From: Lentisphaeria bacterium
Lineage (GTDB): Bacteria; Verrucomicrobiota; Lentisphaeria; Victivallales; UBA1829
Assembly: GCA_017541665.1 (NCBI GenBank)
Contig: JAFXYP010000065.1
Location: 39,167 to 103,166 of the forward strand
Direction of reading: 5' to 3'
DNA length: 64,000 nt
In this document: positions 4,848 to 34,433 of the stretch, one piece after another
Position numbering within the stretch: position 1 is the stretch's first letter
Layout: the number at the start of each line of letters is the position of its first letter
The notes under the pieces: generated by a model
Told to the model about the DNA's origin: nothing
The model's database searches: none
Seen by the model: only the letters and a program-made list of their open reading frames with translations
Translations under genes and position numbers: made by a program

Positions 4848-5238
4848 GCCCGGTCCGGCTCATGCCGGACGGGAGGTTTGCAGTTCAGGTTCGGGATCGG
4901 ATTCGAAGAGCGGAATCGGTTCGCAGGAGCTTGAGCCGGCCCGCCGGAATCGTTTCCGTCGTCTTTTGTTTTTTTTGACCTTATAATGTAGCATTTTTTG
5001 TTCAAAAATCAATCGTTCCTCGCGTTTTTCCCCAATTTCGGGGCTGCGTGCAGCGCCTCCCCTGCGGGCGACCGTTCCCGGCGCGTTGTCCGAAGCCGGC
5101 TTTCCCCGGATGTTTTTTCCTCTTTTTTCGATTCGCGGGGTTGAAAAAAACCGTATGTGATGCTAAAGTAGAGGGAATTTTAACTCAATCAGAACCTGAA
5201 GGCGGCTTTTCCGGGCCGTTGGAAACGAGGCGGGGGCC

Positions 5239-6726
5239 ATGCAGGCTTCGCCTCCGGTGGGATTTGTCATGGACGAAAAAAAGACTGCAGCATCAGCTCC
5301 GAAAAACAAGATATCCTATACCGTCGTGAACCCGGTCATCCCGCGTCCGACCGCAAAACGGAATTCGCCGCCCCCGATCGGCCCCGAGATCGGCCCCGAT
5401 CCGCGCAGTTCCATCGGCTCCCGCGTCTCCATGTGCGAACAGCCTCTCTTCAAAAGCGAAAGCGGCATCCTGTACGACTTCCAGTTCGGGTACCGCGTCA
5501 AGTTCCCGGGGGGAAACAGGACATACAAACTGCGCGTGTACGACCAGGACAGCGGCATGCTGCTGGAGGAACACAGCCACAAGGGCGGCGAATTCTATGT
5601 CGGGGAGAAAAAGTATTTCGTGCGCTACCGCCTCGAGGCGTTTCTGGACAACAGGCTCGTCTTCGAACACAATTACGACTGCACGGGCCGCGAAGTCTGC
5701 ATCATCATCCCGGACGGCGGGCTCGGCGACAACCTCGCCTGGCTGCCTTATCTGGAAAAGTTCAGGGTGGTCCACAAGGCGAAAGTGACCGCAGTCATGG
5801 GCGAATGGATGATTCGTCTCTGCCAGTCGCAGTATCCCGCCCTCAAGTTCATCCCGCTTGCGACGAAGCCGAAACTCGATTTCCCCTACGCGATCTATTT
5901 CTGCGGCATTTTCGAGGAAAACCGCAAGCCCTGGCGTCCCGTCGAGCATCAGCATCTGGGCATGCAGAAGACCGTGGCGCAGATCCTCGGCCTCCCGCTC
6001 GAAAACCTCCACTGCCGTCTCCCGCTCGGTTCGCCGCGGCCCGTCAAGGAACCCTACGTCTGCATCTCCACGATGGCGACGAACCCGACGAAATACTGGA
6101 ATTTCCGGTCCCACCCGGCGAATCCGGAACCCGACGGATGGAACATCCTCATCCGCTGGCTCAAGTCGTTCGGCTACCGCGTTTTCGTCCTCGACCGCGA
6201 CAAGGAGCTCGGCTTCACGGACAAGCACGTCTACCATATCCCGACCGAGGCGGAGGACCTCACCGGGCGGATCCCGATCGCCGAACGCATCCACTATCTG
6301 GAGCATGCCGAATTCTTCGTCGGCCTCCCAAGCGGCCTCAGCTGGCTCGCCTGGAACTGCAACATCCCCGTCGTCATGATTTCCGGCTTCACCATGGACG
6401 GCAGCGAGTTCCCGACCCCATACCGCGTCACGAACTTCCTCTTCTGCCACGGCTGCTGGAACGACTCGCACCTTTTCTTCGACTCCAAGGTCCCCGTCTG
6501 GTGCCCGCGCCATGTGGGCACGCCGCGCGAGATCGAATGCACGAAGACGATCACGCCGAAAATGGTGCAGGAGACCATCATGCGAATCCCGGTGTTCCAG
6601 AAGCATGTGGCGGAGCTGCACGAACAGGAATGGCTGGAGGAATTCCGGTCTCGGTCGTCCGTCCCCGGCGCCGTCAGCACGCTGATCGCGTTCCCGCCCA
6701 GAAATGAAAAAAAAAAGAACAGGTGA
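5239..6726 (+). CDS. autotransporter strand-loop-strand O-heptosyltransferase (BAHT family, TibC/Aah-like; GT9-type fold)
   Basis: 495 aa. Blocks I recall as family-specific for TibC/Aah include GILYDFQFGYRV, KKYFVRYR, GGLGDNLAWLPYLEKF, EPYVCISTMATNPTKYWN and GLPSGLSWLAWNCNIPVVMISGF. A four-Cys iron-finger-like motif is present: CHGCWND...WCPRH...EIEC. An alternative start is ATG 5269 (MDEKK). Confidence 0.8.
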   Translation: MQASPPVGFVMDEKKTAASAPKNKISYTVVNPVIPRPTAKRNSPPPIGPEIGPDPRSSIGSRVSMCEQPLFKSESGILYDFQFGYRVKFPGGNRTYKLRVYDQDSGMLLEEHSHKGGEFYVGEKKYFVRYRLEAFLDNRLVFEHNYDCTGREVCIIIPDGGLGDNLAWLPYLEKFRVVHKAKVTAVMGEWMIRLCQSQYPALKFIPLATKPKLDFPYAIYFCGIFEENRKPWRPVEHQHLGMQKTVAQILGLPLENLHCRLPLGSPRPVKEPYVCISTMATNPTKYWNFRSHPANPEPDGWNILIRWLKSFGYRVFVLDRDKELGFTDKHVYHIPTEAEDLTGRIPIAERIHYLEHAEFFVGLPSGLSWLAWNCNIPVVMISGFTMDGSEFPTPYRVTNFLFCHGCWNDSHLFFDSKVPVWCPRHVGTPREIECTKTITPKMVQETIMRIPVFQKHVAELHEQEWLEEFRSRSSVPGAVSTLIAFPPRNEKKKNR

Positions 6727-7895
6727 GCCGGACCCGTCGGCGTGACGCCACGATCCTGCTCCCCGTCTACCGCGCAAACCCGGACTATCTCAGGCTCACG
6801 CTTGACTCCGTAATCCGCGTCGCGGAGACGCAGGGCAACACCGAAGTCATCCTGTTCAACGACTGTTCGCCGGACGACTCTCAGAGCATCATCGACGAAT
6901 ACGCGGACCGCTATCCGCGCATCATACGCAAGATGAAGTCCGAGCACAACCTCGGCGTCGGAAACGCGCGGACGGAAATGTGCAAGGTCGCGCACGGACG
7001 CTACATCCTCTCGTTCGACCAGGACGACATCATGCTCCCCTTCGACCTCGGGGGCGTGATCGGCATGATGGACCGGAATCCGCAGTACGGCGCGAGCTAT
7101 TCCCCGAAATTCCTGTTCGACGAGAACGGCCTTACCGGAGAGGTCCACGGCGGAGCCCCGTCCGAATTCAACGCCTTCTTCACGCCGAAGGTCAACATCA
7201 ATGCCATGGTCATCCGCGCCGAAGTCCTCGCCGAGCACGAATGGTTCAAGCCCGTCCCGGACTGCGCGATCAATGACGACGTCTTCCTCATGATCCGCCT
7301 CGCCGCGGACACGGAGTTCCATTTCGACGAGGCAAATCCGCGCGTTCTCTACCGCATCCACAAGAAGCAGAACTCGCTCCTCTTCCATCATGAAGACCAG
7401 TTGCCGTTCCGCTGGATGGCGGAATACATGACGAAACAGCAGCCCGAACTCTACCGGCGCATTCTGGCAAACAAACCGCCGAGGCTCACCCCGGAAAACC
7501 GCCGCTGGGTCCTCGGCATGATGGGAGCGGCCGTCTTCCTCAACCAGGACAAACCCGATCTCGTCCTCCCGATCGTCGTCAAGGCATGCGAACTCAACCC
7601 GGACGACTACGGGGCCTGGGAGCACAGGCTCCTGGTCCTCGGCATCGTGGACAGGCACGATGATTTCATGAATCTGTTCAAGTTTGCCGTCGAAAAGTTC
7701 AAAGGACAGTCCCCGACGAAGGAGATGCAGCTCATCTGCGCGCTGGGAACATATTACAGGGTCACCAACAGGAAGATTCCGGACTCCATCTGGGACCGTT
7801 ATGAAAAGCTTCAAAAAGAATACGGCAGGCCGCCGAAGATCGTGCTGGACAATCTGCCGGAAAAAAGGAAGCGGATCGAGGCGCGGACGAAGTAA
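6723..7895 (+). CDS. family 2 glycosyltransferase with a helical C-terminal domain
   Basis: 390 aa. GTG start overlaps the upstream stop (GTGA). GT-A motifs are ILLPVYRANPDYLRLTLDSV, ILFNDCSPDDS and SFDQDDIM (DxD). Confidence 0.8.
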   Translation: MSRTRRRDATILLPVYRANPDYLRLTLDSVIRVAETQGNTEVILFNDCSPDDSQSIIDEYADRYPRIIRKMKSEHNLGVGNARTEMCKVAHGRYILSFDQDDIMLPFDLGGVIGMMDRNPQYGASYSPKFLFDENGLTGEVHGGAPSEFNAFFTPKVNINAMVIRAEVLAEHEWFKPVPDCAINDDVFLMIRLAADTEFHFDEANPRVLYRIHKKQNSLLFHHEDQLPFRWMAEYMTKQQPELYRRILANKPPRLTPENRRWVLGMMGAAVFLNQDKPDLVLPIVVKACELNPDDYGAWEHRLLVLGIVDRHDDFMNLFKFAVEKFKGQSPTKEMQLICALGTYYRVTNRKIPDSIWDRYEKLQKEYGRPPKIVLDNLPEKRKRIEARTK

Positions 7896-16892: not shown

Positions 16893-17936
16893 ATGAACAC
16901 CGAAACCACCTCCCTGATGCCTCCCGAAGAGCTCAATCATATCAGCAGCCTGGCGGCGCGCCTCCTCGACGAACTCGACAAGATCCTGCTCGGCCAGCAC
17001 GAAGTCCACAGGCTCCTCCTCATCGGCATTTTCAGCCGCGGCCACGTGCTGCTCGAAGGGCTCCCCGGCGTCGGCAAGACCGCACTCGTGAAGGCACTCG
17101 GCAAGCTCATGCGCCTGGAGTTCAAGCGCATCCAGTTCACGCCCGACCTGCTCCCCAGCGACATCCTCGGCGGCAGCATCCTCCAGGTCATGCCCGACGG
17201 CTCCCGCAAGATGGAGTTCCAGCCCGGCGCGATCTTCTCCAACATCCTCCTCGCCGACGAGATCAACCGCGCGTCGCCGAAGACCCAGTCCGCCATGCTC
17301 GAAGCCATGCAGGAACACGCCGTAACGCTCCTCGGCGAAACGCGCCCCCTGCCCGACCCGTTCTTCGTGCTCGCCTCGCAGAACCCGATCGAACTCGAGG
17401 GAACCTATCCGATCCCGGAAGCCCAGCTCGACCGCTTCCTCTTCAAGATCAATGTCTCGAGCGTCGACGCCGACGTCCTCACGCAGATCATCGCGAACCG
17501 CCGCCGCGGCGAACCGCCGGAGCCGGAATGGACGCTCTCCGCCGAGGAGCTGAAGGAAATCTTCGACGCCATGGACCGCATCTACCTCAGCGAATCCGTC
17601 GCGAACTACATCGCGCGCATCGTGGCAGCCGGACACCCGGAGAACCCCGCCGCGATCCCGGACGTGACGCGCTTCGTCACCTACGGTCCCTCCCCCCGCG
17701 CAGCCATCGCCCTCGCCGAATCCTCGCGCGCCGCCGCGCTCCTCGCGGGACGTCCCGCGGTCGGGTTCGAGGACGTCCGCAGCGTGGCGCCCGCTGTCCT
17801 GAACCACCGCCTCATCCTGAACTACCAGGCGAAACTCGACAAGATCACGCCCGCGCTCCTCTCCGAACGCCTCCTCGAAAAGGTCGACCCCGCCGGCATC
17901 GACTGGCCGCAGGGCGTCAACGCGGGAAAGGCATGA
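16893..17936 (+). CDS. moxR: MoxR-family AAA+ ATPase
   Basis: 347 aa. Walker A is LLEGLPGVGKT, Walker B is ILLADEINRASPKTQSAMLEAMQE, followed by TYPIPEAQLDRF. Confidence 0.95.
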   Translation: MNTETTSLMPPEELNHISSLAARLLDELDKILLGQHEVHRLLLIGIFSRGHVLLEGLPGVGKTALVKALGKLMRLEFKRIQFTPDLLPSDILGGSILQVMPDGSRKMEFQPGAIFSNILLADEINRASPKTQSAMLEAMQEHAVTLLGETRPLPDPFFVLASQNPIELEGTYPIPEAQLDRFLFKINVSSVDADVLTQIIANRRRGEPPEPEWTLSAEELKEIFDAMDRIYLSESVANYIARIVAAGHPENPAAIPDVTRFVTYGPSPRAAIALAESSRAAALLAGRPAVGFEDVRSVAPAVLNHRLILNYQAKLDKITPALLSERLLEKVDPAGIDWPQGVNAGKA

Positions 17937-20140
17937 CCATGAGCCTCGTTTCAAGCATCTTCCGGCGCGCCCTCCTGCCCGCGCTTCTCCTCCTGCTGCC
18001 CCTCGCGGCATCCGCGTTCGCGACAAGCCAGGCCCCGACCACAGTCCCGACCACGGTCCCGGTCACTGTCCCGGGCACGGATCCGGGCTCGGCTCCCCAG
18101 CTCATCCGGGCAGACGACGAGGGTTCGGACGAACGGTCGAAGACGCTGACTCCGGCGGCAGGTTCCGGCCCGGTCAAGATCTCCGTCGTGCCCGCGCCAT
18201 TCACATCCGTCAACCCCGGCGACCAGTTCGTCCGCGAGTTCGTCGTGCAGAACGATTCGCCGAAGGCTGTCGATGTCTCCATCGTCCTGCGCTACAGGTT
18301 CGGCTGGAGATCCAGCTCCAGCATGCGGTCCGTCTCGGCCTCCCGGAAGATCCCCGCCCACTCCCGGCAGACCGTCACCCTCTTCGTCCCCGCGATCACC
18401 AGCAGGGACCCGGAAGGCATCGAGTGCATCGACCCGAAGATCTTCGTCGACGGCAGGCCGTTCAGGCCCCTGCCGTCCGGCATCTTCGACGCGGGAGAGG
18501 TCGCCTCGGAGCTCTATCTGTCCTCCTCGTTCTCCACGTCCGAACCGCTCGTCAAGGCCATCTCCGTCGAACTGACGCCGCGCGTGCCGCTCGTCCGGTT
18601 CTATTCCCGGGGAAAGGACTGCGATTTCTCCACCACCGACACCATCCAGTGGCCCTCGGTCCCGCAGTTTTACCAGGCGAAGGGCCTGCTCTTCCGCAAA
18701 ACCGCCGACAGATTCTCGTCCGACGCCGAACGCGCCATCCACGACGCCGTCATGCTCGGCGCCACGGAGGTCCTCTTCGTCTCGCCCGGCACCCAGTGGC
18801 CCGAATGGGCTCCGAGGCCCGCCTTCCCCGGACGTCCGGTCGTCGTACCGCGCGGACTCGGGCAGACCATCGTGCTGGACGAAAGCCTCCTGGTCAACCC
18901 CTCGGAGTCGGACATCCGCGTGGCATCCGGCAGGCGCTTCCCGGCCCAGGGGCCGGGCGGCTTCCAAAAGGATCCGGAAGAGGAAGATATAGAGGAAGAA
19001 ATGGCAGAGGAGGAAACCTACGATTACATGCCGCGGGGCAACACGCCCGAACTCCGCGCCGCCCGCGCCGGCAATCCTCAGCTCATGGCGGGCCTGAGGG
19101 ACGCCAGAGTCGTCCGGCTCGATCCGGCCATCCTTTTCCAGATGCTCCCCTGCGTCGACATCCCGAACCTGTCGTTCGCCGTGGTCATCCTCGCGCTGCT
19201 GGCGTACATCATCATCGTGGGCCCGGTCAACTATTTCTACCTCAAAAAGCGCGGAAAAAGCGTGCTGATGCTCCTGCTGACCGTCCCGGCGATCTCCCTG
19301 GTCTTCGTCGCGGTCGTCATCCTCTTCGTCACCATCTTCGAAGGCTGGTTTGCCCGCGCCTCCGCGGTCGGCGTGACCTACCTCGACCAGCAGGCGGGCA
19401 TGGCGTACACGCGCGCCGCCGTGAACCTCTACGCGCCGGTCCCCGTGCGCTCCCTGGTCTTCGACCCGTCGGACACCGTGTCGTTCGCCCGCGCGAAGGA
19501 CGTCGCCGTCCACCTCGGACGCGACCAGGTCGTGAGGGGCGCGAACAAGGCACGCATCCCCCTGACCTACGGCATCTCCCGGGCGGAAAAACAACTCGAA
19601 CAGCTCAAGGTCTCCCGCAACGCCGGCGCCACGATCTCCGTCGTCAACGGCCTCGGCGTCCCCGTGAAGGTCCTCGCCATGAGGACTCCGGACGGCGAAT
19701 ACTGGCTTCCCCCGGACGGCGTCGTCCGGCCCGGCGCATCCGCCGAGCTCAGGCATTTCGCCGGAAAACAGCCCGCCGGAAAACCGGCAGGCAATGCGAA
19801 AAACGGGCTTCTGTACGACATTTCGGCGTGCCTGCTGGAGACCGGCGTCCCCTCGGCCGCGAGCTCCTACGTCCCGAACGGCGGCAACACCGTCCGGGTG
19901 TACGCGGACAGAGAGTTCCTGAAAAATCTGCGCGGCAGGAAACAGCAGATCGAATCCGAAGACAAGCCCCAGGACCGGCCGTATCCCTCCCTGCTCGCCT
20001 CGATCCTTTCGCCCGGCATGTACATCGCGGAGGCCGCCACCCCGCTTTTCTACACGCCCGGCTGCACACCCGTTTCCTTCCGTGCCCGCCACCTCGTCGT
20101 CGGCACGTTCACCCTTCAGGAGTCCGCACATGAAAACTGA
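17933..20140 (+). CDS. secreted/membrane hypothetical protein of the MoxR operon
   Basis: ATG 17933 overlaps the moxR stop (ATGA); the ORF-track start at 17528 lies inside moxR. The 735-aa product has a signal peptide (MTMSLVSSIFRRALLPALLLLLPLAASAFA) and two TM helices mid-protein (FAVVILALLAYIIIVGPV, LMLLLTVPAISLVFVAVVILFV). Confidence 0.7.
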   Translation: MTMSLVSSIFRRALLPALLLLLPLAASAFATSQAPTTVPTTVPVTVPGTDPGSAPQLIRADDEGSDERSKTLTPAAGSGPVKISVVPAPFTSVNPGDQFVREFVVQNDSPKAVDVSIVLRYRFGWRSSSSMRSVSASRKIPAHSRQTVTLFVPAITSRDPEGIECIDPKIFVDGRPFRPLPSGIFDAGEVASELYLSSSFSTSEPLVKAISVELTPRVPLVRFYSRGKDCDFSTTDTIQWPSVPQFYQAKGLLFRKTADRFSSDAERAIHDAVMLGATEVLFVSPGTQWPEWAPRPAFPGRPVVVPRGLGQTIVLDESLLVNPSESDIRVASGRRFPAQGPGGFQKDPEEEDIEEEMAEEETYDYMPRGNTPELRAARAGNPQLMAGLRDARVVRLDPAILFQMLPCVDIPNLSFAVVILALLAYIIIVGPVNYFYLKKRGKSVLMLLLTVPAISLVFVAVVILFVTIFEGWFARASAVGVTYLDQQAGMAYTRAAVNLYAPVPVRSLVFDPSDTVSFARAKDVAVHLGRDQVVRGANKARIPLTYGISRAEKQLEQLKVSRNAGATISVVNGLGVPVKVLAMRTPDGEYWLPPDGVVRPGASAELRHFAGKQPAGKPAGNAKNGLLYDISACLLETGVPSAASSYVPNGGNTVRVYADREFLKNLRGRKQQIESEDKPQDRPYPSLLASILSPGMYIAEAATPLFYTPGCTPVSFRARHLVVGTFTLQESAHEN

Positions 20141-21176
20141 AGTCCGCAACCTCTCGCGCATTTTCGGCAAGACCGTCGCCGTCGACAATATCTCGTTCTC
20201 GTTCGAAGACGGCAACATCTTCGGCTTCATCGGACCGAACGGCGCGGGCAAGACCACCACCATCCGCATCATGGCGACGCTCGACCTCGCCACGTCCGGC
20301 GACGTCTTCTACGACGGCGTCTCCGCCACGCTTTACCCGGAGGCTGTCCGCCGCGTGGTCGGATACATGCCCGACTCCCTGCCCGGATACAAGGACATCC
20401 AGGTCTGGGAATACCTCGATTTCTTCGCGCGCAGTTTCGGGCTGAGGGGCGCGGAGCGCACCCGCGCGCTGAACGACATCGTGGATTTCACCAACCTCGG
20501 CGAACTCCGCAACAAGTTCCTCTTCGCGCTCTCCAAGGGCATGAAGCAGCGGGTCAGCCTCGCACGCGCCCTCATCCACAACCCGAAGGTGCTCATCATG
20601 GACGAGCCCGCGGCCGGCCTCGACCCCCGTGCGCGCCACGAGCTCCGCACCCTGCTGAAAATCCTCGCCGAGCAGAAAAAGGCGATTTTCCTGAGCAGCC
20701 ACATCCTGTCCGAGCTTCAGGATATCTGCGACGGCGCGGTCATCATCGAACAGGGCAAGCTCCTGTCCGCCGGCACGCTTAACGACCTTCTTTCGCAGGT
20801 CACAGGCGGAACGCCGCCCCCGGCCGCCGCCGAATCCGCCGTGCCTCAGGCGCAGGCCGACGGGACCTCCGGCCTTTCCGGCGCACCCGCCGCACCCCGG
20901 ACGCAGGCCGCGCCTCAGGGCGTCAGCATCATCCTGAAGACCCCGCGCGGGGAAGCCGAGCCGGTCCGGCTGAAACTCCTCGAACACCCGCTCACGCGTT
21001 CCGTGGACCTCTTCGATGACGATGAAGTCCACGCGGTCATCGCGGGCAGCGACGCCGAGGTCTCCCGCGTGGTCGGCACCGTCTTCGCCGCCGGGCTCAC
21101 GGTCCTGTCGTTCAACCGGAACCAGATGGGCCTGGAGGAGCTTTTCATGAAGATCACGCAGGGCAAGGTGCAGTAA
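20130..21176 (+). CDS. ABC transporter ATP-binding protein
   Basis: ATG 20130 (MKTEVRNLSRIFG) overlaps the upstream gene by 11 nt. Walker A is GPNGAGKTT, the signature is LSKGMKQRV and Walker B is LIMDEPAAGLD. Confidence 0.9.
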   Translation: MKTEVRNLSRIFGKTVAVDNISFSFEDGNIFGFIGPNGAGKTTTIRIMATLDLATSGDVFYDGVSATLYPEAVRRVVGYMPDSLPGYKDIQVWEYLDFFARSFGLRGAERTRALNDIVDFTNLGELRNKFLFALSKGMKQRVSLARALIHNPKVLIMDEPAAGLDPRARHELRTLLKILAEQKKAIFLSSHILSELQDICDGAVIIEQGKLLSAGTLNDLLSQVTGGTPPPAAAESAVPQAQADGTSGLSGAPAAPRTQAAPQGVSIILKTPRGEAEPVRLKLLEHPLTRSVDLFDDDEVHAVIAGSDAEVSRVVGTVFAAGLTVLSFNRNQMGLEELFMKITQGKVQ

Positions 21177-21188
21177 GGAGGCCCGGAC

Positions 21189-22679
21189 ATGATCGGAAAA
21201 GCATTCATCGGGAACATCGCCGAGTCCCTCAACCCGGTTTTCGTCAAGGAAATGCGCCAGTATTTCCAGAACCGCCGCATGGTCGTCTTCATGGGGCTGC
21301 TCCTCGTCGCGCAGTTCATCTGCACGCTCTTCTTCTCCTCCGCCATGACGTTCGACGCGGACGGGGAGGAAGGCGTCGCATTCTTCCTGCTCATCATCTT
21401 CGCGGGGGCCATCCTCTCCGTCCTCATCTGCGCGGTCGGCGCGGAACAGCGGTTCGCGGAGGAACGCTCCGACAAGGAGCTGAACTACGCCATGCTGACC
21501 ACGCTGAAGCCGTCCTCGATCATCATGGGCAAGCTTGAGGGCGCCATGGTCATGATCCTGTGCATCTTCTCCATGCTGCTGCCGTTCCTGACCGCGGCGT
21601 ACTTCATGCGCGGGCTGTCGGCGGCGTCATTGCTCCTCACGCTGTACCTCTTCCCCGTCCTCGTCCTGCACACGCTCGCGGGCGTCTTCGCCGGGTCGTT
21701 CGGGCAGAAATGGATCACGATCCTGTATTTCATCGGGCTGGTGAACAGCGCCTTCGGGTTTGTCCCGCTCGCGTTCACCCTCGCCGAGGAGCTTATGGAC
21801 AGCGCCGTGCTGGACCCCGTCTTCTGGGGCATGCTCCTCATCGAATATGAGGTCGCGTTCCTGATCGGCGTCATGCTCTTCCTGCTCTCCCTCGCAGTCA
21901 TCTCGCCGCCGATGTCGAACCGCATGCTGCCCGCGAAAGTCTACCTTTTCGCCCTGCCCTTCCTCACGCTGGTCCTGATGGCGCCGTACTACATCCTCTT
22001 CGCCGGGCCGGACTACCCCCATGAGATGTTCTACTTCATCGAATTCCTCTTCTGCGCCTTCTCCATCGCCGTGCTGCCGTTCATCGCGCTCTTCGAGACC
22101 CCGACGAACAGCATCCGCGTATACATGAAATGCCCGCGCAACTTCTTCGGACGCGCCCTGCATTTCCTGTTCTCCTCCGGGTTCTCCGGCTCGGTGATCC
22201 TGCCGGTTCTGATCCTGCCGCTCCCCGTGCTGCTGATCCCGCTCGGGCGCTTTTCCCCGACCGACCCTGCCCCTTACGTCGTCTGCGGGTTCCTGTGCAT
22301 CCTCGTGACCTTCCTCGGCGAAGTGGCCCTGTCGCTCATCCTGAGCTGGCGGACGCGCCTGCCCCTGCCGGCCTGGCTTTGGACGATCCTGTTCGTGGTG
22401 ATCGGCAACATCCTCCCCTGGATCCCCGTCGCGATCAACGAGGACACGCTCCCGCAGCATTCGCTCCGCATCATAAGCATGCTGTTTTCCCAGACATACT
22501 GCATCCTGGAGTGCTTCGACGAACCTAAGGAAGTCTGTTTCCAGGGGCTCTGCGCGTCCCTCGTTGTCACGGGCGTCCTCCTTCTGCTCCTGCTGCCCGC
22601 GATCCTCAAGGCGTTCCGCCTCCACCGCTTCCCTGAAAACGAAGTCAAGCCGCCCACGAAGGAAATGACCGGAAAATGA
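21189..22679 (+). CDS. ABC-2-type permease-like polytopic membrane protein
   Basis: 496 aa with more than 10 hydrophobic helices. The N-terminus (NPVFVKEMRQYFQNRRM) is typical of ABC-2-like permeases that follow such ATPases. Confidence 0.7.
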   Translation: MIGKAFIGNIAESLNPVFVKEMRQYFQNRRMVVFMGLLLVAQFICTLFFSSAMTFDADGEEGVAFFLLIIFAGAILSVLICAVGAEQRFAEERSDKELNYAMLTTLKPSSIIMGKLEGAMVMILCIFSMLLPFLTAAYFMRGLSAASLLLTLYLFPVLVLHTLAGVFAGSFGQKWITILYFIGLVNSAFGFVPLAFTLAEELMDSAVLDPVFWGMLLIEYEVAFLIGVMLFLLSLAVISPPMSNRMLPAKVYLFALPFLTLVLMAPYYILFAGPDYPHEMFYFIEFLFCAFSIAVLPFIALFETPTNSIRVYMKCPRNFFGRALHFLFSSGFSGSVILPVLILPLPVLLIPLGRFSPTDPAPYVVCGFLCILVTFLGEVALSLILSWRTRLPLPAWLWTILFVVIGNILPWIPVAINEDTLPQHSLRIISMLFSQTYCILECFDEPKEVCFQGLCASLVVTGVLLLLLLPAILKAFRLHRFPENEVKPPTKEMTGK

Positions 22680-24424
22680 ACCCGGAAAACCAGACCGCAG
22701 CCGTGAACCAGCCGCCGGAGACGCCTCCGCCTCCCGGACGGTCCGCCGAACCGGAAGAAGCCCGCGTGAAAAAGCCGGGCATCTTCCGCGCGTGGCTCGG
22801 CCTGTGGCGCGACCGCGACCTGGACCTGGAGGGGCGCGACACGTCCGACTGGAACATCTACTACTACTATTTCCGGCAGGTCTACCAGCATACTGCCCCG
22901 GTCAAGCTCAAATACATGAGGTGGATCGCGCTCCTCTTCCAGATTTACTTCTTCGGGATGATCCTGCTGGCGCAGCTGAGATCCCTGCTCGTTTTCAGCA
23001 AAGAGTCCGTAAGGCTCGGCAAACGTCTGGAGCTGTCCGACGCCCTCTTCGACACGATTTCCATGCTCGGGGTCTCCGCCAACATCTACATCATGCCGGT
23101 CCTCCTGTTCATCCCGGTGTTCATGGTCGGGTTCAAGCTCCGCGCGAAAGCGCAGGGCTTCATCACGTCCCGCGCCAAGGAACCGCCCCTGCTGGCGCAT
23201 CTGGTGCAGTACACCTCGAACAAGGGTCTTGTGCAGGGCGCGTTGCAGAGCCTGCTGTTCACCTGGGGCCGGTTCATCCTTCTGCTGCTCCCCGCCATCA
23301 TCGTCGCGGTCCTGCTGCTGACGGGCTACGCCGCGGTCGAACAGTCGGACAAGGCGTTCAAGCTGGCGTTCGGCATGCCGGTCGGCACGATCATGGCAGT
23401 CCTGACGCTTTCGCTGTTCTTCATGATGCAGCCGTTCTGCTACCGTCTGGATACCCTGATGCTCATCATCGGGATCGGGATCGAAACGATCGTGTTCACG
23501 GCGCTCGGATTCGACGACAAAGCCACCATGGAATTCTGGACAGGCCTCTGGTGCTGCTATGTCCCGTCGACCCTCTTCGCCTGCGCCTATTTCCCGCTCG
23601 CCGCAGCCGACACGGGCGAATACGGGCTCGGGAAGCGCACCTCGAAATGGATCCGCATCCTGCTCTATTCCGTTGCGGGCGCCTTCCTCGTGACGCTCCT
23701 CGCGACGAACGCCATCCCCGCGTGCCACGACGGTTCCCCGACTTTCAGGGAATTTTATGGAGGCAACATTTCTTTGGCGGAATACGACAAGAGCATTCTG
23801 TTCCGGCACAGGGAGTTTGTCGAAGTCCTCTTCATCTTTTTCAAATGGGGGCTTTTCCTGAGCGTCAGCGGCCTGCTGGTCACCTCGGTCTCCGTCATCT
23901 CGTACCGGGCGGCCGCGCTCCGCCTGCGCCGCGAGGACGGCCCCCTCCTGCGGAAACTGTTCGATCCGGCGTCGCCGGTCTCGCTGGTCCCGGTCGTCAT
24001 CCTCGAGATAATCGTCCTCATGACCGTCTCGATATGGACCGAGCCGTTCAGCCGTTACATGCACTTCCGGGAGACCTTCATGCGGCTGAACTCGCCTCAG
24101 ACAGCCCGGGTCGTCTGGACCGCCATCCATTTCGGCATCGTCATCGCATACATCCGCCAGTTGAGGCGACCGGAGATGAAGGAGCCGTGGAACTCCCATG
24201 TCCGGTTCAATATGGTCAGCCTCATCGGCATCGTCGCCGTCGAGCTGGTCCTGGTGCTGAGCGGAGACGCTCACGACGCGAAGCCGGTCTCCTTCGGCCT
24301 TTATGTCGTTTCCATCGTCGTCATGTTCGCCGTTTTCGGAATCACGAATTTCCGTTCCATGATGAAAAAGCCCGCTCCGCCTGAGGCCGCCCCCTCCGCG
24401 GAACAGAATGAGGAGGCGTCATGA
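22676..24424 (+). CDS. polytopic membrane hypothetical protein
   Basis: 582 aa with ATGA overlap at both ends and many TM helices. No motif recognised. Confidence 0.6.
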   Translation: MNPENQTAAVNQPPETPPPPGRSAEPEEARVKKPGIFRAWLGLWRDRDLDLEGRDTSDWNIYYYYFRQVYQHTAPVKLKYMRWIALLFQIYFFGMILLAQLRSLLVFSKESVRLGKRLELSDALFDTISMLGVSANIYIMPVLLFIPVFMVGFKLRAKAQGFITSRAKEPPLLAHLVQYTSNKGLVQGALQSLLFTWGRFILLLLPAIIVAVLLLTGYAAVEQSDKAFKLAFGMPVGTIMAVLTLSLFFMMQPFCYRLDTLMLIIGIGIETIVFTALGFDDKATMEFWTGLWCCYVPSTLFACAYFPLAAADTGEYGLGKRTSKWIRILLYSVAGAFLVTLLATNAIPACHDGSPTFREFYGGNISLAEYDKSILFRHREFVEVLFIFFKWGLFLSVSGLLVTSVSVISYRAAALRLRREDGPLLRKLFDPASPVSLVPVVILEIIVLMTVSIWTEPFSRYMHFRETFMRLNSPQTARVVWTAIHFGIVIAYIRQLRRPEMKEPWNSHVRFNMVSLIGIVAVELVLVLSGDAHDAKPVSFGLYVVSIVVMFAVFGITNFRSMMKKPAPPEAAPSAEQNEEAS

Positions 24425-25299
24425 CCGCACCCGCCGCAACTGCCATCCCGTATTTCAGGAGTGCGGTCGAACGCGCCCTGGCGGCCGCCGGCGGCGTGGA
24501 GCTCACCGCGCCCGCCCAGGTATCCGGCATCGACGGACGCCGCACCGGACGCAGGACGGGCAACGCGCTGGAATTCTCCGAGTACCGCGAGTACCGTCCC
24601 GGCGACGACCTGCGGCGCATCGACTGGCGCGTGTACGCCCGGAGCGAACAGCTCATGATCAAGCAGTATTCGGAGGAGATCGACCCGCGGTGCGACGTGA
24701 TCCTGGACCATTCGGCGTCCATGGCGGTGACCGAACGCAAGGCGTCCGCCGCGATCTCGCTGGCGGCGATCTTCGCGACCGCGGCGGCGAACTCCGGCTT
24801 CTCCCTCAACCTCTGGCATGCCGCGGGCACGTTCCGCAAGGACCCTTCGCCCGCCTCGCCGCTCCTCTGGGACTTCCCGCCCTTCGAAACGCCGTTCAGC
24901 CCCTCGGCAAACCCGGCGTCCTTCTCCGGCCAGTTCTTCCGGCGCGGCATCCGAATCCTCGTCACCGACCTCATGGGCCCGGACGACCCCGCGCCCGTGC
25001 TGTCCCGCCTCGCCGACGGGGCGAAGCGCGCCGTGGCCGTCATGGTGCTGGACCCGCTGGAGCTCGAGCCCGAGCTGGACCCGAACGTGATGCTGATCGA
25101 CGCCGAGACCGGCGAGGAACGCGAGCTCGTGCTGGATGAAGGCGCGCTGGCACGCTACCACGAACGCCTTGAGCACCACCGCGCCATGTGGGCCACCGCC
25201 GCCGCGTCACGGGGCGTCCTGCTCCTGCCGCTTTCCGCCGCGGATTTCTACCCGGAGATCCGTCCCGACGAACTCTTCCACGCGGGGCTGCTCAAATGA
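24421..25299 (+). CDS. DUF58 domain protein (vWA-like, MoxR partner)
   Basis: 292 aa. Hallmark EFSEYREYRPGDDLRRIDWRVYARSEQLMIKQY, then DHSASM. GAGGAGG lies upstream. Confidence 0.9.
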   Translation: MTAPAATAIPYFRSAVERALAAAGGVELTAPAQVSGIDGRRTGRRTGNALEFSEYREYRPGDDLRRIDWRVYARSEQLMIKQYSEEIDPRCDVILDHSASMAVTERKASAAISLAAIFATAAANSGFSLNLWHAAGTFRKDPSPASPLLWDFPPFETPFSPSANPASFSGQFFRRGIRILVTDLMGPDDPAPVLSRLADGAKRAVAVMVLDPLELEPELDPNVMLIDAETGEERELVLDEGALARYHERLEHHRAMWATAAASRGVLLLPLSAADFYPEIRPDELFHAGLLK

Positions 25300-27140
25300 A
25301 CGATTTCTTCTTCGGGTTCGAACACTCCCCGCTCCTCTGGTGCGCCCTGCCGGTCTTCCTGGTGCTGCTCCTGCTCTATCTCCTGCACCGCCGTTCGAAA
25401 GTCCGCATCGTGTCCGCCATCTTCCTGTGGGACCGTCCTCAGGCGTCCCCGAACAGCGGCACGCGCATCCGGCTCCGGTTCCCGCCCGCGATCTTCTATC
25501 TGGAGCTCGCCGCGCTGCTGCTCCTGACCGCCGCGCTCGCCGCGCCGTTCGTCTCCACCCCGGAGACCTTCCCGCCGCTCGCTGTGATCCTCGACGACTC
25601 CATGTCCATGCAGGCGAAGGTCCCCGGCGGAAGGTCCCCGCTCGAATCCGGCGCGGACTTCATCAGGCGCGAACTGCGCGCCCTGCCCGACCGCCGCGTC
25701 CTGTGGATCGTCGCGGGCGAAACGCCCACGCTCACCTCGGACAGCAACGCCCGGACGGACTTCACGCCGTTCTGGACTGGACAGGCCGCCTCGTCCGACC
25801 TCGCCGCGGCGGCGTCCCTCGCCCGGCGCATGGCGCGCGGCTGCCACCTCCTGATCGTGACCGACCGCAAGCCCGCGATCGAGCTCGCGCCGGACACCAC
25901 GTGTTTCTCCGCGGGCGCGCCGCTGGGCAATTCCGCCATCGTGAACGCCCGCCGCACCTCGGGTCGCATCCTGATCGAGGCGGCGAACTTCTCCACGCTC
26001 CCCGCGGACGCCGCGCTCGTGCTGGAGCCCGGTTCGCTTCGGACGCAGATCCGGCTTGAGCCGAAGGAGACGCGCCGCATCGTGCTGGCAGTCCCGGCGG
26101 CCGCCGCACGCGAAGCGATCACCGTCCGCCTCGAAAACGCCGACGCATCCGCGAACGCCCTGCTCTGCGACGATGAAGTCGTGCTGGAGGCCGAAGACGA
26201 TTCCCCGGTCTCGTACCGCATCGCCGGGACGTTCCACGCCGACGCACGGTCCGCGCTCGACCGCGTGCTGAACAGCAATCCGTCGTTCCGGCCTGCCCTG
26301 ACAGGCGAGACACCCGACCTCGACATCCTTCCCGCCGAGACCGAAAGCCCCGCGCCCGTGCATCTTTTCTGGCTTTCCGCCCCGATGAAAAAGCCCGCTG
26401 CGAATCCCGCTTCGAATCCGCCGCAGACGGATCAGGCTGGGAACAGCGAAGCAAATCCGCCTCAATCTGAAGATCCCGCGCCATCCGCGGCCGGCCCGCT
26501 CTCCATCGAGAATGCATCCATCCTTTCGCGCGGGCTCCCGCTCGATTCGCTTCAATGGGCGGTCAGCGCGAACGAACTGCCCGGACAGACGATCCTGCGG
26601 AGCGGCGACGTGCCGGCGATCTCCACCCGCCAGAACCTGAACCGCGACCGCGAAATCTTCCTCAACCTCGATCCGACGCGCTCCAACATCACGCACCATC
26701 CGTTCTGGCCGGTCTTCTTCCAGAACCTCGCGCAGACCGTCCGAACCGAACGCTTCGGTCCGGCGCGCGCGAACCTGCGGGCAGGCGAACTGCTCCACGT
26801 CCGCCTCCCGCGCGGGGCGCAGTCGCTGACCGCGGTCCGTCCCGACGGCAAATCCATGGAAATCCAGGCCATGCGCGGGCAGACCGATTTCCGTCCGGCG
26901 CTCCACGGCGTCTGGCGCCTTGAATCCGGCGACGGGAAATGGTCCGTCGGCGTGATGGGGCTCCGCGCGGAGGAATCCGACCTCTCCGGCGCCGGGCCGT
27001 TCCGGCAGGACGCCGACAAGCTCGCGGTCATGCCGTTCTGGATGCTCCGCCCGCTCGCGTGGGCGTTCCTGCTGCTCGCCGCCCTGCTCCTCGCGGCGCA
27101 CCACGTCCTGCTCGCAGGGAAAGGAGGCCGCCAATGCTGA
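25296..27140 (+). CDS. BatA-N-terminal-domain (aerotolerance-regulator-like) membrane protein
   Basis: ATG 25296 (MNDFFFGFEHSPLLWCALPVFLVLLLLYLLHRRSKVRIVSAIFLWD) overlaps the DUF58 stop (ATGA). The 614-aa product has a C-terminal TM helix. Confidence 0.8.
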   Translation: MNDFFFGFEHSPLLWCALPVFLVLLLLYLLHRRSKVRIVSAIFLWDRPQASPNSGTRIRLRFPPAIFYLELAALLLLTAALAAPFVSTPETFPPLAVILDDSMSMQAKVPGGRSPLESGADFIRRELRALPDRRVLWIVAGETPTLTSDSNARTDFTPFWTGQAASSDLAAAASLARRMARGCHLLIVTDRKPAIELAPDTTCFSAGAPLGNSAIVNARRTSGRILIEAANFSTLPADAALVLEPGSLRTQIRLEPKETRRIVLAVPAAAAREAITVRLENADASANALLCDDEVVLEAEDDSPVSYRIAGTFHADARSALDRVLNSNPSFRPALTGETPDLDILPAETESPAPVHLFWLSAPMKKPAANPASNPPQTDQAGNSEANPPQSEDPAPSAAGPLSIENASILSRGLPLDSLQWAVSANELPGQTILRSGDVPAISTRQNLNRDREIFLNLDPTRSNITHHPFWPVFFQNLAQTVRTERFGPARANLRAGELLHVRLPRGAQSLTAVRPDGKSMEIQAMRGQTDFRPALHGVWRLESGDGKWSVGVMGLRAEESDLSGAGPFRQDADKLAVMPFWMLRPLAWAFLLLAALLLAAHHVLLAGKGGRQC

Positions 27141-29974: not shown

Positions 29975-30079
29975 AGCCGGCTCCCCGCGCCGAAGAGAGT
30001 TGCGGGGTTCCTATCGCGGAGGATCTTCGCGCAATCCGGGCAGTCCTCCCCTCCCAATCCGTGACGGGAAAACGAAAAA

Positions 30080-30121
30080 CCAAAAGGGTTTCATCCTCGA
30101 GCCCCTTTGGCTTTTTATTTT
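30080..30121 (+). terminator. rho-independent terminator of the MoxR-vWA operon
   Basis: CCAAAAGGG, a 13-nt loop and CCCCTTTGG, followed by CTTTTTATTTTT. Confidence 0.6.
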
Positions 30122-30131
30122 TGAAAAAAGT

Positions 30132-30160
30132 TTGCTTTTGGCACATTTTGACATTATATT
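30132..30160 (+). promoter_or_regulatory. candidate sigma70-type promoter (TTGCTT-N17-TATATT)
   Basis: Hexamers at 30132-30137 and 30155-30160, upstream of the 30334 gene. Confidence 0.35.
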
Positions 30161-31470: not shown

Positions 31471-31488
31471 AGACTTGATGTTCCGTTG

Positions 31489-31526: not shown

Positions 31527-31556
31527 TCTTCAACCGAACAGATAAAGCGACGCCGG

Positions 31557-34429: not shown

Positions 34430-34433
34430 CGGG

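Follow-up and report, generated by a model that had tools for sequence, protein, structure and literature searches.

The window, a stretch of 64 kb of DNA from an uncultured rumen Victivallales bacterium (Lentisphaerota), contains near one end two overlapping glycosyltransferase reading frames and the following associated features.

5141-5169, plus strand: promoter-like sequence ahead of BAHT, TTGAAA-17-TAAAGT with TG (weak, from a consensus scan only)
5239-6726, plus strand: BAHT-family protein O-heptosyltransferase, 495 aa (TIGR04414, TibC_1st, GT9 and TibC matches)
5377-5406, plus strand: clade motif IGPEIGPDPR, BAHT residues 47-56, on the N-terminal side of the TibC-type beta-barrel domain
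6707-6717, plus strand: ten A residues followed by G (A10G), candidate slippage or -1 frameshift site conserved in 21 junctions
6708-7895, plus strand: GT2 reading frame in the -1 frame with respect to BAHT, open from within the A-run; GTG 6723 is the nominal start
6724-6726, plus strand: zero-frame BAHT stop TGA, two codons plus one base past the run

By family membership the 495-residue protein is a TibC/Aah-type iron-finger heptosyltransferase. It scored 390.3 bits against the NCBIfam equivalog TIGR04414 (hepto_Aah_TibC, cut-off 200), 39 bits against Pfam TibC_1st (cut-off 27) and 29.9 bits against Pfam Glyco_transf_9 (cut-off 22), and residues 71-449 matched the TibC chains 4rap/4rb4 with E=1.5e-86. 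The sequence blocks on which the initial annotation had based the assignment (GILYDFQFGYRV, KKYFVRYR, LGDNLAWLPYLEKF, EPYVCISTMATNPTKYWN and LPSGLSWLAWNCNIPVVMISGF) were all found in the reading frame, as was the four-cysteine motif CHGCW...WCPRH...EC. An alternative start at ATG 5269 (M11) fits the MNEKK/MDEKK starts of homologs. The promoter consensus scan returned 2 sites compared with 0.7 expected in shuffled sequence.

Residues of TibC proven functionally include D110, T226, K230, R286, W305, C339, C342, C358 and C370 (PMC4358343). Alignment with TibC, proposed earlier as a check, showed that the catalytic aspartate (D110, BAHT D164), the four ADP-heptose contacts (T226, K230, R286 and W305; BAHT T281, K285, R350 and W369) and the four iron-finger cysteines (C339, C342, C358 and C370; BAHT C403, C406, C422 and C434) are all retained. 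TibC P300 corresponds to P364, a position occupied by proline in 58 of 60 clade members and by serine in 54 of 59 distant homologs. The thumb tip residues F265 and V266 of TibC are not retained, so a dodecamer is not assured for the window enzyme. The IGPEIGPDPR motif, in some cases with substitutions, was found in most Victivallales-clade homologs (P0001-P0059), is missing from P0060-P0070, the distant homologs listed, and falls outside the TibC alignment, which begins at residue 71.

The catalytic core of the BAHT is GT9 and the nearest solved folds of the GT2 decorate teichoic acids or polysaccharides, features shared with a generic LPS core heptosyltransferase acting beside an envelope-polysaccharide GT2 with no protein glycosylation. 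The family scores effectively refute this reading and uphold the original distinction from WaaC/WaaF-type enzymes, the match to the LPS heptosyltransferase I model being only 15.5 bits (cut-off 185) compared with 390 bits for TIGR04414. Moreover, the BAHT has both the N-terminal barrel and the iron finger of TibC, neither the BAHT nor the GT2 matches a membrane-domain family (both appear soluble by eye), and fusion of the two is recurrent. The view of the family as usually enterobacterial was too narrow, since homologs number more than 3000 and named sources include members of Victivallaceae, Rhodoblastus and Stellaceae. No ADP-heptose synthesis genes are located within the 64-kb window; an LPS heptosyltransferase II gene adjoins BAHT in one relative (L028), which lends indirect support to a pathway for the donor.

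In the GT2, residues 7-220 form a GT-A domain and residues 227-376 a helical repeat domain; the protein scored 80 bits against Pfam Glycos_transf_2 (PF00535). The AF2 model (pLDDT 90, pTM 0.88) matched RmlT, TarP, TarS, SpsA and WrtF in Foldseek. The motif F98-D99-x-D101-D102 is invariant, Q100 nearly so, and mean column identity is 55%. The subfamily is tiny, with 34 proteins at E<=1e-30 among 1.84 billion representatives.

The zero frame across the A-run reads GAA AAA AAA AAG and holds the slippery heptamer A AAA AAG. Runs of at least nine A are established sites of transcriptional slippage, and A AAA AAG is the heptamer of dnaX (PMC1088944; PMC5009743). The run was compared in 21 distinct junction sequences of the run-bearing clade, drawn from the window, 9 GTDB species genomes and 17 metagenome contigs, the latter found with an anchor that excluded the A-run. 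Its length, phase and following G are identical in 21 of 21, the zero-frame stop lies 1-3 codons after the run and the -1 frame is open into GT2; the codons on either side of the run differ between junctions, and so does the stop codon. All other homopolymers in the window are shorter than A10, and no other A-run of ten or more was found there or across 580 kb of related loci. RNAalifold detected no conserved stimulatory structure in the RNA downstream of the run, so slippage is more likely than a -1 frameshift of the classical dnaX type; no Shine-Dalgarno element was apparent upstream by eye.

In the window GTG 6723-6725, which opens a 390-aa GT2 reading frame, overlaps the BAHT stop as originally described, permitting independent GT2 initiation here and in L010, where the junction is likewise GTGA. 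Ordinary translational coupling would have separate BAHT and GT2 proteins made by termination and reinitiation at GTGA, with the A-run encoding merely a lysine-rich tail. It is an unlikely explanation, notwithstanding the CTGA junctions of L008 and L009 and the separate GT2 of L017 that starts at its own ATG. The junction GTG is confined to the window and to L010, one of the nine related species whose junction is intact, and 17 of 21 junctions have no ATG, GTG or TTG ahead of the essential first beta-strand of GT2; lacking upstream starts, the GT2 is shortened by gene callers to ~351-358 aa with loss of beta1 and alpha1. Coupling also leaves unexplained the invariance of A10G amid variable flanking sequence, the use of AAA AAA AAG where AAG accounts for 66% of lysine codons in the window genes (AAA, 34%), and the L047 junction, whose PASIPAP-repeat (Pro/Ala/Ser) linker is readable only in the -1 frame and would fall in an untranslated spacer. 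The functional tie between BAHT and GT2 that was first proposed holds, whereas the start-stop overlap is not the conserved device; A10G is invariant instead.

BAHT and GT2 lie next to each other or are fused in 16 of the 28 GTDB species loci, in at least three different genomic contexts, a count in which several loci without the pair end at a contig edge. True in-frame fusions, fixed in several lineages, were found in P0030, P0050, P0057 and L022; in L026, L030 and P0331 the order is BAHT, degenerate GT2, GT2, and in P0322 BAHT, GT2, GT2. These fusions, together with the invariant A10G, the junctions lacking a start codon and the linker encoded in the -1 frame, argue for recoding that yields both BAHT and a BAHT-GT2 fusion. 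The GT2 therefore appears, on this comparative evidence, to be made mainly through slippage or -1 frameshifting at A10G. Slipped-strand mispairing at the DNA level, toggling subpopulations between separate BAHT (A10) and fusion (A11 or A8), is very improbable as the origin of the fusion. Long homopolymers are hypermutable (PMC1088944) and one genome (L011) has A11, in that case with a deletion that breaks the junction pattern. However, all 21 distinct junctions, from independent assemblies and samples, have exactly A10, and no A9 or A11 variant was found in the unbiased metagenome search. A switch that is always off would leave GT2 unexpressed in most lineages, yet the protein is well conserved.

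The candidate substrate and the genes flanking it are located in a second region of the window.

38736-40556, plus strand: ABC exporter with TMD and NBD, 606 aa (Pfam ABC_membrane and ABC_tran)
41310-56103, plus strand: giant S/T-rich modular protein of secreted type, split between two frames; weak substrate candidate
56280-57170, plus strand: ScmC-like/HprK-related P-loop protein, Walker A GESGMGKST (TIGR04249)
57167-57427, plus strand: PqqD-family peptide chaperone (ScmD-like), start overlapping the stop of the ScmC-like gene
57434-58045, plus strand: S24/S26-like peptidase with GNSM and HRVVG motifs read from the sequence (TIGR02228)
58145-61102, plus strand: 985-aa AIDA-repeat and RTX protein, candidate BAHT substrate (TIGR04415, Pfam AIDA repeat and RTX matches)

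BAHTs recognise AIDA-type rungs. The 985-aa protein scored 139 bits against TIGR04415, the heptosylation-target repeat (cut-off 30), over 8 stretches, and also matched the Pfam AIDA repeat and the AIDA-I model (E=2.7e-34). Self-similarity at lag 19 (z=5.3) is confined to residues 1-520, as are all 11 SGG motifs, bearing out the 19-residue AIDA-type repeats reported initially; five RTX nonapeptides follow at residues 831-881. The heptosylated Ser313 of TibA sits in an N-S-G-G turn (PMC4358343). The best 120 homologs are all AIDA plus RTX. The protein is the window's member of a large Lentisphaeria family that combines an AIDA-type beta-helix with RTX repeats and a conserved tail at the C-terminus, without a signal peptide or T5SS barrel. 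No autotransporter beta-domain was matched in any large reading frame of the window, the 985-aa protein included, in agreement with the earlier statements that no autotransporter adjoins BAHT and that neither repeat protein has a T5SS beta-barrel. Heptosylation-target and RTX repeats without a beta-barrel make the 985-aa protein a credible candidate substrate as judged from its repeats. Its gene lies ~51 kb from BAHT and its paralogs are mostly scattered through the genome; in L030 the C-terminus of an AIDA/RTX ortholog is directly upstream of the BAHT-GT2 fusion, and L010 has an AIDA-repeat gene ~5 kb past the stop codon of GT2.

The giant protein, described initially as one reading frame with 19-residue periodicity, consists of ORFs 41310-43619 and 43396-56103 in different frames, with a +1 shift at a T5 run (around 43228-43232) connecting the two; the periodicity is present, weak and local (z=3.8 overall). 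It has no Pfam or NCBIfam match, including AIDA and TIGR04415, and, failing this target-repeat test, is only a weak substrate candidate; of the two candidates first put forward, the 985-aa protein is the credible one.

The ScmC-like, PqqD-like and ABC exporter genes, which the initial annotation had missed, join the two regions. The ABC exporter has a homolog directly adjoining BAHT-GT2 in L016/L033 (51% identical, phmmer E=6e-190), and we infer that the two are orthologous; another is directly upstream of BAHT in L035. The window protein falls below every cut-off of the T1SS ABC models, and none of the window's genes was found to be of HlyD or TolC type. The ScmC-like protein best matched TIGR04249 ScmC (E=4e-10, below cut-off), with homologs directly upstream of BAHT-GT2 in L017, L018 and L022 and of an AIDA/RTX paralog in L040. 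The PqqD-like protein (Pfam PqqD, 65 bits; best NCBIfam match TIGR04248 ScmD) has homologs adjoining BAHT in L016/L033, L018, L022 and L034. Since homologs of genes flanking the substrate gene adjoin BAHT-GT2 in relatives, the two window loci are linked; gene neighborhoods thus show an association of ScmC-like, PqqD-like and sometimes radical-SAM/SPASM genes with BAHT-GT2 in a putative shared cassette. The S24/S26-like peptidase, found in the window only among the loci compared, has a weak match to the archaeal-type signal peptidase I model TIGR02228 (E=1.4e-6, below cut-off) and no N-terminal membrane anchor.

The same neighborhoods raise the prospect that BAHT-GT2 tailors another substrate of an SCM-like cassette, either a leader-bearing peptide or protein recognised by the PqqD-like chaperone, much as in RiPP pathways, or a beta-helical protein of the giant type, with the AIDA/RTX proteins as bystanders. 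Radical-SAM/SPASM, PqqD-like and ScmC-like genes flank BAHT among L016, L017, L018, L022 and L034, and L034 has neither GT2 nor a nearby AIDA gene. In L018 the BAHT-GT2 fusion is followed by a protein of at least 770 aa, running to the contig end, with non-AIDA beta-helix repeats and the YV(D/N)..W...NAF module common to the window giant protein. Against these points, AIDA-type rungs are known BAHT targets, the 985-aa protein exceeds the target-repeat cut-off by a wide margin whereas neither the giant protein nor the L018 protein scores at all, AIDA/RTX genes adjoin BAHT-GT2 (L030) or ScmC (L040), and an unsystematic look noticed no small precursor reading frame. This alternative is considered distinctly unlikely.

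Overall, the locus on balance probably encodes a two-enzyme cytoplasmic protein O-glycosylation module of BAHT and recoded BAHT-GT2 with AIDA/RTX substrates, a reading drawn from sequence comparison. RNA polymerase would add one A at A10G, or the ribosome slip -1 on A AAA AAG, such that a fraction of products shifts to the -1 frame to give the 495-aa BAHT plus a BAHT-linker-GT2 fusion of ~880 aa. TibC acts as a dodecameric ring, by which precedent mixed rings with sub-stoichiometric GT2 domains may form. In proteins of the Lentisphaeria AIDA/RTX family, the N-terminal strand-loop-strand rungs of 19 residues, which have (N/S)SGG turns, would serve as acceptors, and GT2 may use an NDP-sugar to add a second sugar to the Ser-linked heptose, or may glycosylate neighboring sites. 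The glycosylated proteins would then be exported via a C-terminal-signal (T1SS-like) route, possibly with the ABC exporter.

The reference systems for the BAHT family are TibC/TibA and Aah/AIDA-I (Lu et al. 2014; Yao et al. 2014, PMC4358343). The window enzyme shares with TibC the N-terminal flattened barrel, the GT-B/GT9 core, the 4-Cys iron finger in the same order, the catalytic aspartate, the ADP-heptose contacts and proline at the stereoselectivity position, and the predicted acceptor is, as in both systems, a 19-residue beta-helix rung with serine in (N/S)SGG turns. It differs from TibC in being ~40% identical, with a ~70-aa clade-specific N-terminal extension (IGPEIGPDPR) and a ~45-aa C-terminal linker, and in both reference systems the enzyme gene is beside that of its substrate, which is not the case in the window. 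Where TibA and AIDA-I have a T5SS beta-barrel, the predicted substrates have C-terminal RTX repeats and a conserved tail, and they lack a Sec signal. A second glycosyltransferase apparently attached through recoding or fusion, and a PVC-group gut commensal rather than a proteobacterial pathogen as host, further distinguish the system from TibC/Aah.

Two-step adhesin glycosylation is known for HMW1C/NGT with an alpha-1,6-glucosyltransferase and for Gram-positive SRRP GtfA/B with further glycosyltransferases including the bifunctional dGT1. There also a cytoplasmic glycosyltransferase primes a repetitive secreted adhesin and a second enzyme, sometimes fused, elongates the glycan; the enzymes are GT41 or GT4/GT8 rather than GT9 plus GT2, and linkages and secretion routes differ. 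The neighboring genes best match ScmC, ScmD and ScmE and resemble the SynChlorMet (SCM) and HPr-rel-A/lasso-type PqqD-kinase cassettes (TIGR04248-04251, TIGR04352/3) as a set of PqqD-type chaperone, HprK-like P-loop protein and radical-SAM/SPASM enzyme, although all scores are below the equivalog cut-offs. To our knowledge SCM cassettes are themselves uncharacterised, and no report was found in the literature of one with BAHT, GT2 or large beta-helical proteins. Likewise, no account of a protein-glycosylation enzyme made through recoding came up in a limited literature search. The recoding site is most comparable to that of E. coli dnaX (tau/gamma), with A AAA AAG in the same phase and two products, here predicted, and to those of Thermus thermophilus dnaX (A9 slippage), IS elements and Shigella T3SS genes, with a homopolymer of at least nine A; as in these dnaX, IS-element and Shigella sites, the run is conserved in nucleotides and the zero-frame stop is close. 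It differs from dnaX in having neither an apparent upstream Shine-Dalgarno element (by eye) nor a conserved downstream stem-loop (RNAalifold), and in that the shifted frame would add a whole enzyme domain rather than truncate the product.

The 495-aa open reading frame at 5239-6726 (+) contains every motif quoted for it in the initial annotation, and its designation there as a TibC/Aah-type protein O-heptosyltransferase (BAHT) was borne out by family models. TIGR04414 ("autotransporter strand-loop-strand O-heptosyltransferase", a curated equivalog) matched with 390.3 bits (cut-off 200) over model positions 4-374 of 374. Pfam matches to TibC_1st (PF21129, 39 bits, cut-off 27) and Glyco_transf_9 (PF01075, 29.9 bits, cut-off 22) revealed an N-terminal TibC beta-barrel followed by a GT9 core of the GT-B type. 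The LPS heptosyltransferase I model reached only 15.5 bits against a cut-off of 185 and, therefore, the objection that the protein is a generic WaaC-type LPS heptosyltransferase fails. The family scores also speak against a role of BAHT and the adjacent GT2 glycosyltransferase in envelope polysaccharide.

The solved TibC chains (4rap/4rb4) align over TibC residues 18-385 with residues 71-449 of the window BAHT (E=1.5e-86). In TibC, experiments identified D110 as the catalytic base, T226, K230, R286 and W305 as sugar contacts, C339, C342, C358 and C370 as an iron finger, and P300 as responsible for D,D-heptose selectivity (PMC4358343). The alignment with the TibC structure, proposed as a check in the initial annotation, located the catalytic, donor-contact and iron-finger residues as well as the selectivity proline.

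Equivalent residues of TibC and the window BAHT, from the alignment
Catalytic base: TibC D110; window BAHT D164; conserved
ADP-heptose contacts: TibC T226, K230, R286, W305; window T281, K285, R350, W369; conserved
Iron finger cysteines: TibC C339, C342, C358, C370; window C403, C406, C422, C434; conserved
D,D-heptose selectivity: TibC P300; window P364; conserved

The four predicted iron-finger cysteines (C403, C406, C422 and C434) are invariant in 119 of 119 aligned homologs, and the position equivalent to P300 is proline in 58/60 clade members and serine in 54/59 more distant homologs. The TibC dodecamer is held by a thumb with two hydrophobic residues at the tip, whereas in the alignment the thumb region of the window BAHT has a one-residue insertion and the tip (GFTDKHV versus GQGF-VW in TibC) is not conserved. 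Genes for ADP-heptose synthesis were not found within the 64-kb window. A gene encoding LPS heptosyltransferase II (TIGR02195, 168 bits, cut-off 134.6) adjoins the BAHT gene of a Lentisphaeria MAG (L028, 11811-12941 (-)), indirect evidence that the order makes ADP-heptose. The conserved donor-binding residues and this neighbor are indirect evidence for the predicted ADP-heptose-dependent O-heptosylation of serine by the enzyme.

A genome scan returned 28 BAHT loci, every one from a rumen or horse-faeces MAG of Victivallales/Lentisphaeria, and a protein identical to the window BAHT is encoded on several ENA rumen metagenome contigs. Ten species keep the housekeeping order of the window (lysine-aminomutase-like radical SAM gene, BAHT, GT2, nadC-type QRPTase, YmdB), indicating that the BAHT locus is chromosomal and vertically inherited and is not an island. 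No autotransporter is adjacent, as had been observed initially; the flanking genes are housekeeping genes and the family-model scan detected no autotransporter beta-domain in the window ORFs. The enterobacterial setting given there as the usual one is too narrow. The family comprises more than 3000 homologs at E<=1e-20, some of them already annotated as such by NCBI or JGI in Victivallaceae, Rhodoblastus and Stellaceae, and BAHTs beyond the Enterobacteria were thus known at the annotation level. Literature searches for BAHT with Lentisphaerae, Victivallales, RTX or T1SS returned nothing relevant and, within incomplete literature coverage, no report was found that describes a BAHT acting on RTX-type substrates, occurring in Lentisphaerota or involving recoding. 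Locus L036 and the contexts lacking GT2 (the L020-L028 group) were uninformative, the gene downstream being YbaK-like by eye, and the pseudopilin-like genes upstream of the L037 BAHT were judged unrelated. Greedy ORF maps with spurious antisense ORFs were set aside for some loci.

The 390-aa ORF downstream of BAHT, nominally 6723-7895, encodes a GT-A domain (PF00535, 80.4 bits) in which F98-D99-x-D101-D102 of the DxD region is invariant among aligned homologs and Q100 nearly so. The AlphaFold (AF2) model (pLDDT 90, pTM 0.88) places the GT-A domain at residues 7-220 and, after it, a domain of helical repeats at 227-376. The nearest solved folds found with Foldseek are the polymer-decorating GT2 enzymes RmlT, TarP, TarS, SpsA and WrtF, with a probability of 1.0 to RmlT, TarP and SpsA. 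The subfamily is very small, with 34 members at E<=1e-30 among 1.84 billion representatives; a word-indexed search found 77 full-length relatives, of which the few with a source name are from Lentisphaeria, Victivallales or Victivallaceae. GT2 adjoins or is fused to BAHT in 16 of the 28 species loci, across several unrelated genomic contexts, and the fusions are in frame.

Fusions of BAHT and GT2 found in sequence
P0030, P0050, P0057 and L022: in-frame BAHT-GT2 fusions
L026/L030/P0331: fusion of BAHT, a degenerate GT2, then GT2
P0322: fusion of BAHT and two copies of the GT2 module

The recurrent adjacency and the true in-frame fusions are Rosetta-stone evidence that strongly suggests the two enzymes work together. 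Two further features of the pair were observed. A stretch of ~35 nt at the GT2 N-terminus (window 6751-6785 and orthologous sites in alignment A2), encoding RDATILLPVYRA, is nearly invariant at the nucleotide level including third positions, although the proteins are only ~75% identical between species. Many clade BAHTs (P0001-P0059) carry an N-terminal segment, xYSFxxP, preceding IGPEIGPDPR, with the window reading ISYTVVNPVIP (within 5239-5400), and a similar tail, P(A/T)YSFxx after PPxIVLDNLP, ends some distant GT2 partners (P0186-P0197); this short motif common to BAHT N-termini and GT2 tails might be a docking peptide.

The BAHT frame of the window ends in ...GAA AAA AAA AAG AAC AGG TGA, with ten A's at 6707-6716 followed by G (A10G) and the heptamer A AAA AAG in phase. 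GT2 is read in the -1 frame relative to BAHT, and this frame is open from 6708. The same arrangement was found in nine further GTDB species and on 17 of 17 metagenome contigs, the latter retrieved by a nucleotide anchor inside GT2 that did not include the run, for a total of 21 distinct junction sequences with that of the window. All 21 have exactly A10 then G in the same phase, a GAA or CAA codon before the run, a zero-frame stop 1-3 codons past it and a -1 frame open into GT2. Since the run is constant while the flanking codons, stop codon and linker vary, the comparison indicates that it is under selection. The A10 run is the longest homopolymer of the 64-kb window, runs of at least 10 occur in 580 kb of related loci only at these junctions, and AAA is the minority lysine codon (34%).

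Only four junctions (the window, L010, L046 and L049) offer a canonical start codon ahead of the first GT2 beta-strand and after the run, and 17/21 have none; consequently the public gene calls for most GT2 homologs begin at approximately residue 35 and lack beta1 and alpha1. The conserved junction thereby explains the systematic truncation of GT2 by gene callers in dozens of rumen metagenomes and provides the annotation fix. In locus L047, the stretch from the run to GT2 is expanded to KKKALTAPASIPAPPSIPAPASIPAPASKAGETKR, which lies after the zero-frame stop, is readable only in the -1 frame and is typical of interdomain linkers. The conserved A10G run combined with the missing start codons speaks against plain translational coupling of BAHT and GT2 and against phase variation at the DNA level in the A10 run. 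The features of a recoding site are present: an in-phase slippery heptamer and homopolymer of at least nine, a near zero-frame stop, an open shifted frame, retention of the site at the nucleotide level across diverged species and, in 17/21 junctions, a downstream ORF without its own start. Transcriptional slippage is established at runs of at least nine A's and reaches ~50% in the case of Thermus dnaX; the frameshift heptamer of E. coli dnaX is A AAA AAG (PMC1088944; PMC5009743). From the comparison of these sequences we infer that part of the expression moves into the -1 frame, by an extra A in the mRNA or a ribosomal slip, and would produce a BAHT-linker-GT2 protein of ~880 aa alongside the 495-aa BAHT. 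RNAalifold with 10 species found no conserved stimulatory RNA structure downstream of the run (-1.9 kcal/mol, 4 pairs, no covariation); transcriptional slippage needs none.

The junction of L016/L033 is related, with GT2 in the -1 frame without a start and an A6 run abutting the stop, and in L017 GT2 is a separate gene that starts from an ATG of its own. The sole species locus breaking the junction rule is L011 (11456-11500). It has A11 rather than A10, and ~30 nt including the linker and the DATILL strand are deleted, so that what is left of GT2 follows the stop in the zero frame; this junction reflects either an artefact of assembly or a copy in decay.

The initial annotation named two proteins encoded in the same window as plausible substrates, and the proposal was sustained for the 985-aa protein (58145-61102 (+)), which has no T5SS barrel. 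The BAHT target-repeat model TIGR04415 matched with 139.4 bits (cut-off 30) in 8 stretches, the AIDA-I model matched with E=2.7e-34 and the Pfam AIDA repeat model also matched. Self-similarity gave a lag-19 z of 5.3 with lag-19, lag-38 and lag-57 periodicity in residues 1-520, which contain 11 SGG motifs; the mapped heptosylation site of TibA, Ser313, sits in N-S-G-G (PMC4358343). The sequence carries the hallmarks of a type I secretion (RTX) substrate: RTX repeats (PF00353, 46.7 bits) with five GGxGxD-type nonapeptides at 831-881 near the C-terminus, an N-terminus (MDEIITDTVEV) that does not resemble a signal peptide, and a candidate C-terminal signal. The family-model search found no beta-barrel. 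The AIDA plus RTX architecture was found in 120/120 of the best homologs (P0202-P0321) and an autotransporter domain in 0/120; several of the 120 have extra protease or carbohydrate-binding domains. The C-terminal tail of the family is strongly conserved (...GAFxxFTSxRIFEESGKGILASL), the window having ...GAFDAFSSQKVFEESASVPGALA (60960-61099). T1SS signals are not usually conserved to this degree, which suggests that the tail is a dedicated signal for sorting or export. Directly upstream of the BAHT-GT2 fusion of L030 lies the C-terminal end of an AIDA/RTX protein, and downstream of GT2 in L010, ~5 kb from its stop, is an AIDA-repeat gene. A reverse-transcriptase gene (RVT_1) in L039 (19538-20656 (-)) adjoins two AIDA-repeat genes, with a type I restriction methylase and an integrase close by, a setting that may be a retron, a group II intron or a diversity-generating element.

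The second protein, the giant product of 41310-56103 (+), did not hold up as an AIDA-type substrate: there was no TIGR04415 or AIDA match, and the lag-19 signal that had drawn attention to it is weak and local. No Pfam or NCBIfam model matched the giant protein, and BLASTP against the protein downstream of BAHT::GT2 in L018 gave nothing at E<=1e-3. The gene is in two frames, 41310-43619 and 43396-56103, because the T5 run within ggcgtttttcacg (43228-43240) shifts the frame by +1; T4 in place of T5 would yield one continuous ORF of ~4930 aa. Possible explanations for the break are an indel, a pseudogene and an assembly error. A module, hYVDxxY/W...G(Y/W/I)NAFxxhxDA, recurs at residues ~160-200, 1170, 1553, 2297, 2590, 3183 and 3746; it is also N-terminal in some AIDA/RTX paralogs (P0253, P0260, P0265, P0266 and P0271) and present in the L018 protein. 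This distribution suggests a common pool of secreted, mosaic proteins.

Four genes accompany the giant and 985-aa genes in the window.

Cassette and export genes of the window
38736-40556: ABC exporter gene, ahead of the giant gene
56280-57170: ScmC-like/HprK-related P-loop gene, between the giant and 985-aa genes, tightly packed
57167-57427: PqqD-family chaperone gene, between the giant and 985-aa genes, tightly packed
57434-58045: S26-like peptidase gene, between the giant and 985-aa genes, tightly packed

In relatives, homologs of the cassette genes lie directly beside BAHT-GT2, and the cassette ties the BAHT-GT2 locus to the giant/985-aa locus of the window.

Gene orders in related loci
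L018: ScmC-like, PqqD, BAHT::GT2, beta-helical protein
L022: radical-SAM/SPASM, ScmC-like, PqqD, BAHT::GT2
L017: ScmC-like, then BAHT, GT2
L016/L033: PqqD, BAHT, GT2, ABC exporter (51% identical to that of the window, E=6e-190)
L035: ABC exporter, BAHT
L034: radical-SAM/SPASM, BAHT, PqqD, NTP_transf_5

L040 has ScmC followed by AIDA/RTX, as in the window. A less likely alternative is that BAHT-GT2 acts on a different, cassette-encoded substrate. The best NCBIfam matches of the cassette genes are the SynChlorMet proteins ScmC (39.5, cut-off 125), ScmD (42.8, cut-off 100) and ScmE (162 and 126, cut-off 400), all below cut-off; the genes are similar to that cassette but not members of it. The SynChlorMet proteins are themselves uncharacterised and a literature search on the cassette found nothing relevant. 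The ABC exporter was below the cut-off of every T1SS model, and no HlyD-type (MFP) or TolC-type gene was found among the window ORFs scanned. The S24/S26-type peptidase (203 aa), wedged between the PqqD-like and AIDA/RTX genes, has the ER/archaeal-type motifs GNSM and HRVVG and no membrane anchor; no homolog was found in the other loci examined.

Elsewhere in the window, a tandem pair of secretin genes (GspD/PilQ-like, neither reaching the model cut-offs) follows FeoB and FeoA at 32090-38632 (-) and stands head-to-head with the ABC exporter gene at 38736. The region 16893-29974 encodes MoxR ATPase, DUF58, BatA-like and VWA proteins (an aerotolerance "Bat"-type operon), accompanied by an ABC ATPase and large unannotated membrane-type ORFs. 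The stretch 30001-32000 has a G+C content of 51% versus ~60-69% around it and includes an ORF (30334-31470, 378 aa) without Pfam or NCBIfam match; it may be a foreign insertion.

In the proposed pathway, the best supported of the models considered, serines in AIDA-type rungs would be heptosylated in the cytoplasm, GT2 tethered to BAHT through recoding would elongate the glycan or act in co-modification, the cassette proteins would assist, and export would follow by a route dependent on the C-terminal signal. A speculative and, on balance, unlikely extension is that A10G recoding sets the ratio of BAHT to BAHT-GT2, that mixed rings act processively to assemble an O-glycan of two sugars on exoproteins with a beta-helix and an RTX tail, and that the module belongs to an undescribed non-T5SS maturation and export pathway of PVC-group bacteria. 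The other members of this pathway would be a PqqD-type chaperone, an HprK-like kinase, an S26-like peptidase and a dedicated ABC exporter, at times joined by a radical-SAM/SPASM enzyme. In that case, leader recognition in the style of RiPPs would apply to very large proteins. The large AIDA/RTX family, with protease domains in some members, suggests that the abundant but uncultured Lentisphaerota of the rumen have glycosylated proteins that are secreted or at the surface. The BAHT-GT2 module is simple to reconstitute in E. coli and could give a heptose-based disaccharide tool for cytoplasmic glycoengineering. To our knowledge, the only role known for BAHTs is to add a single sugar to autotransporter adhesins of proteobacteria. 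The proposed pathway would carry the family to another phylum, to another secretion logic with RTX-tailed substrates that have no barrel, and to a multi-enzyme glycan. The A10G junction, conserved as it is, would add a clean new case in which recoding attaches an entire catalytic domain.
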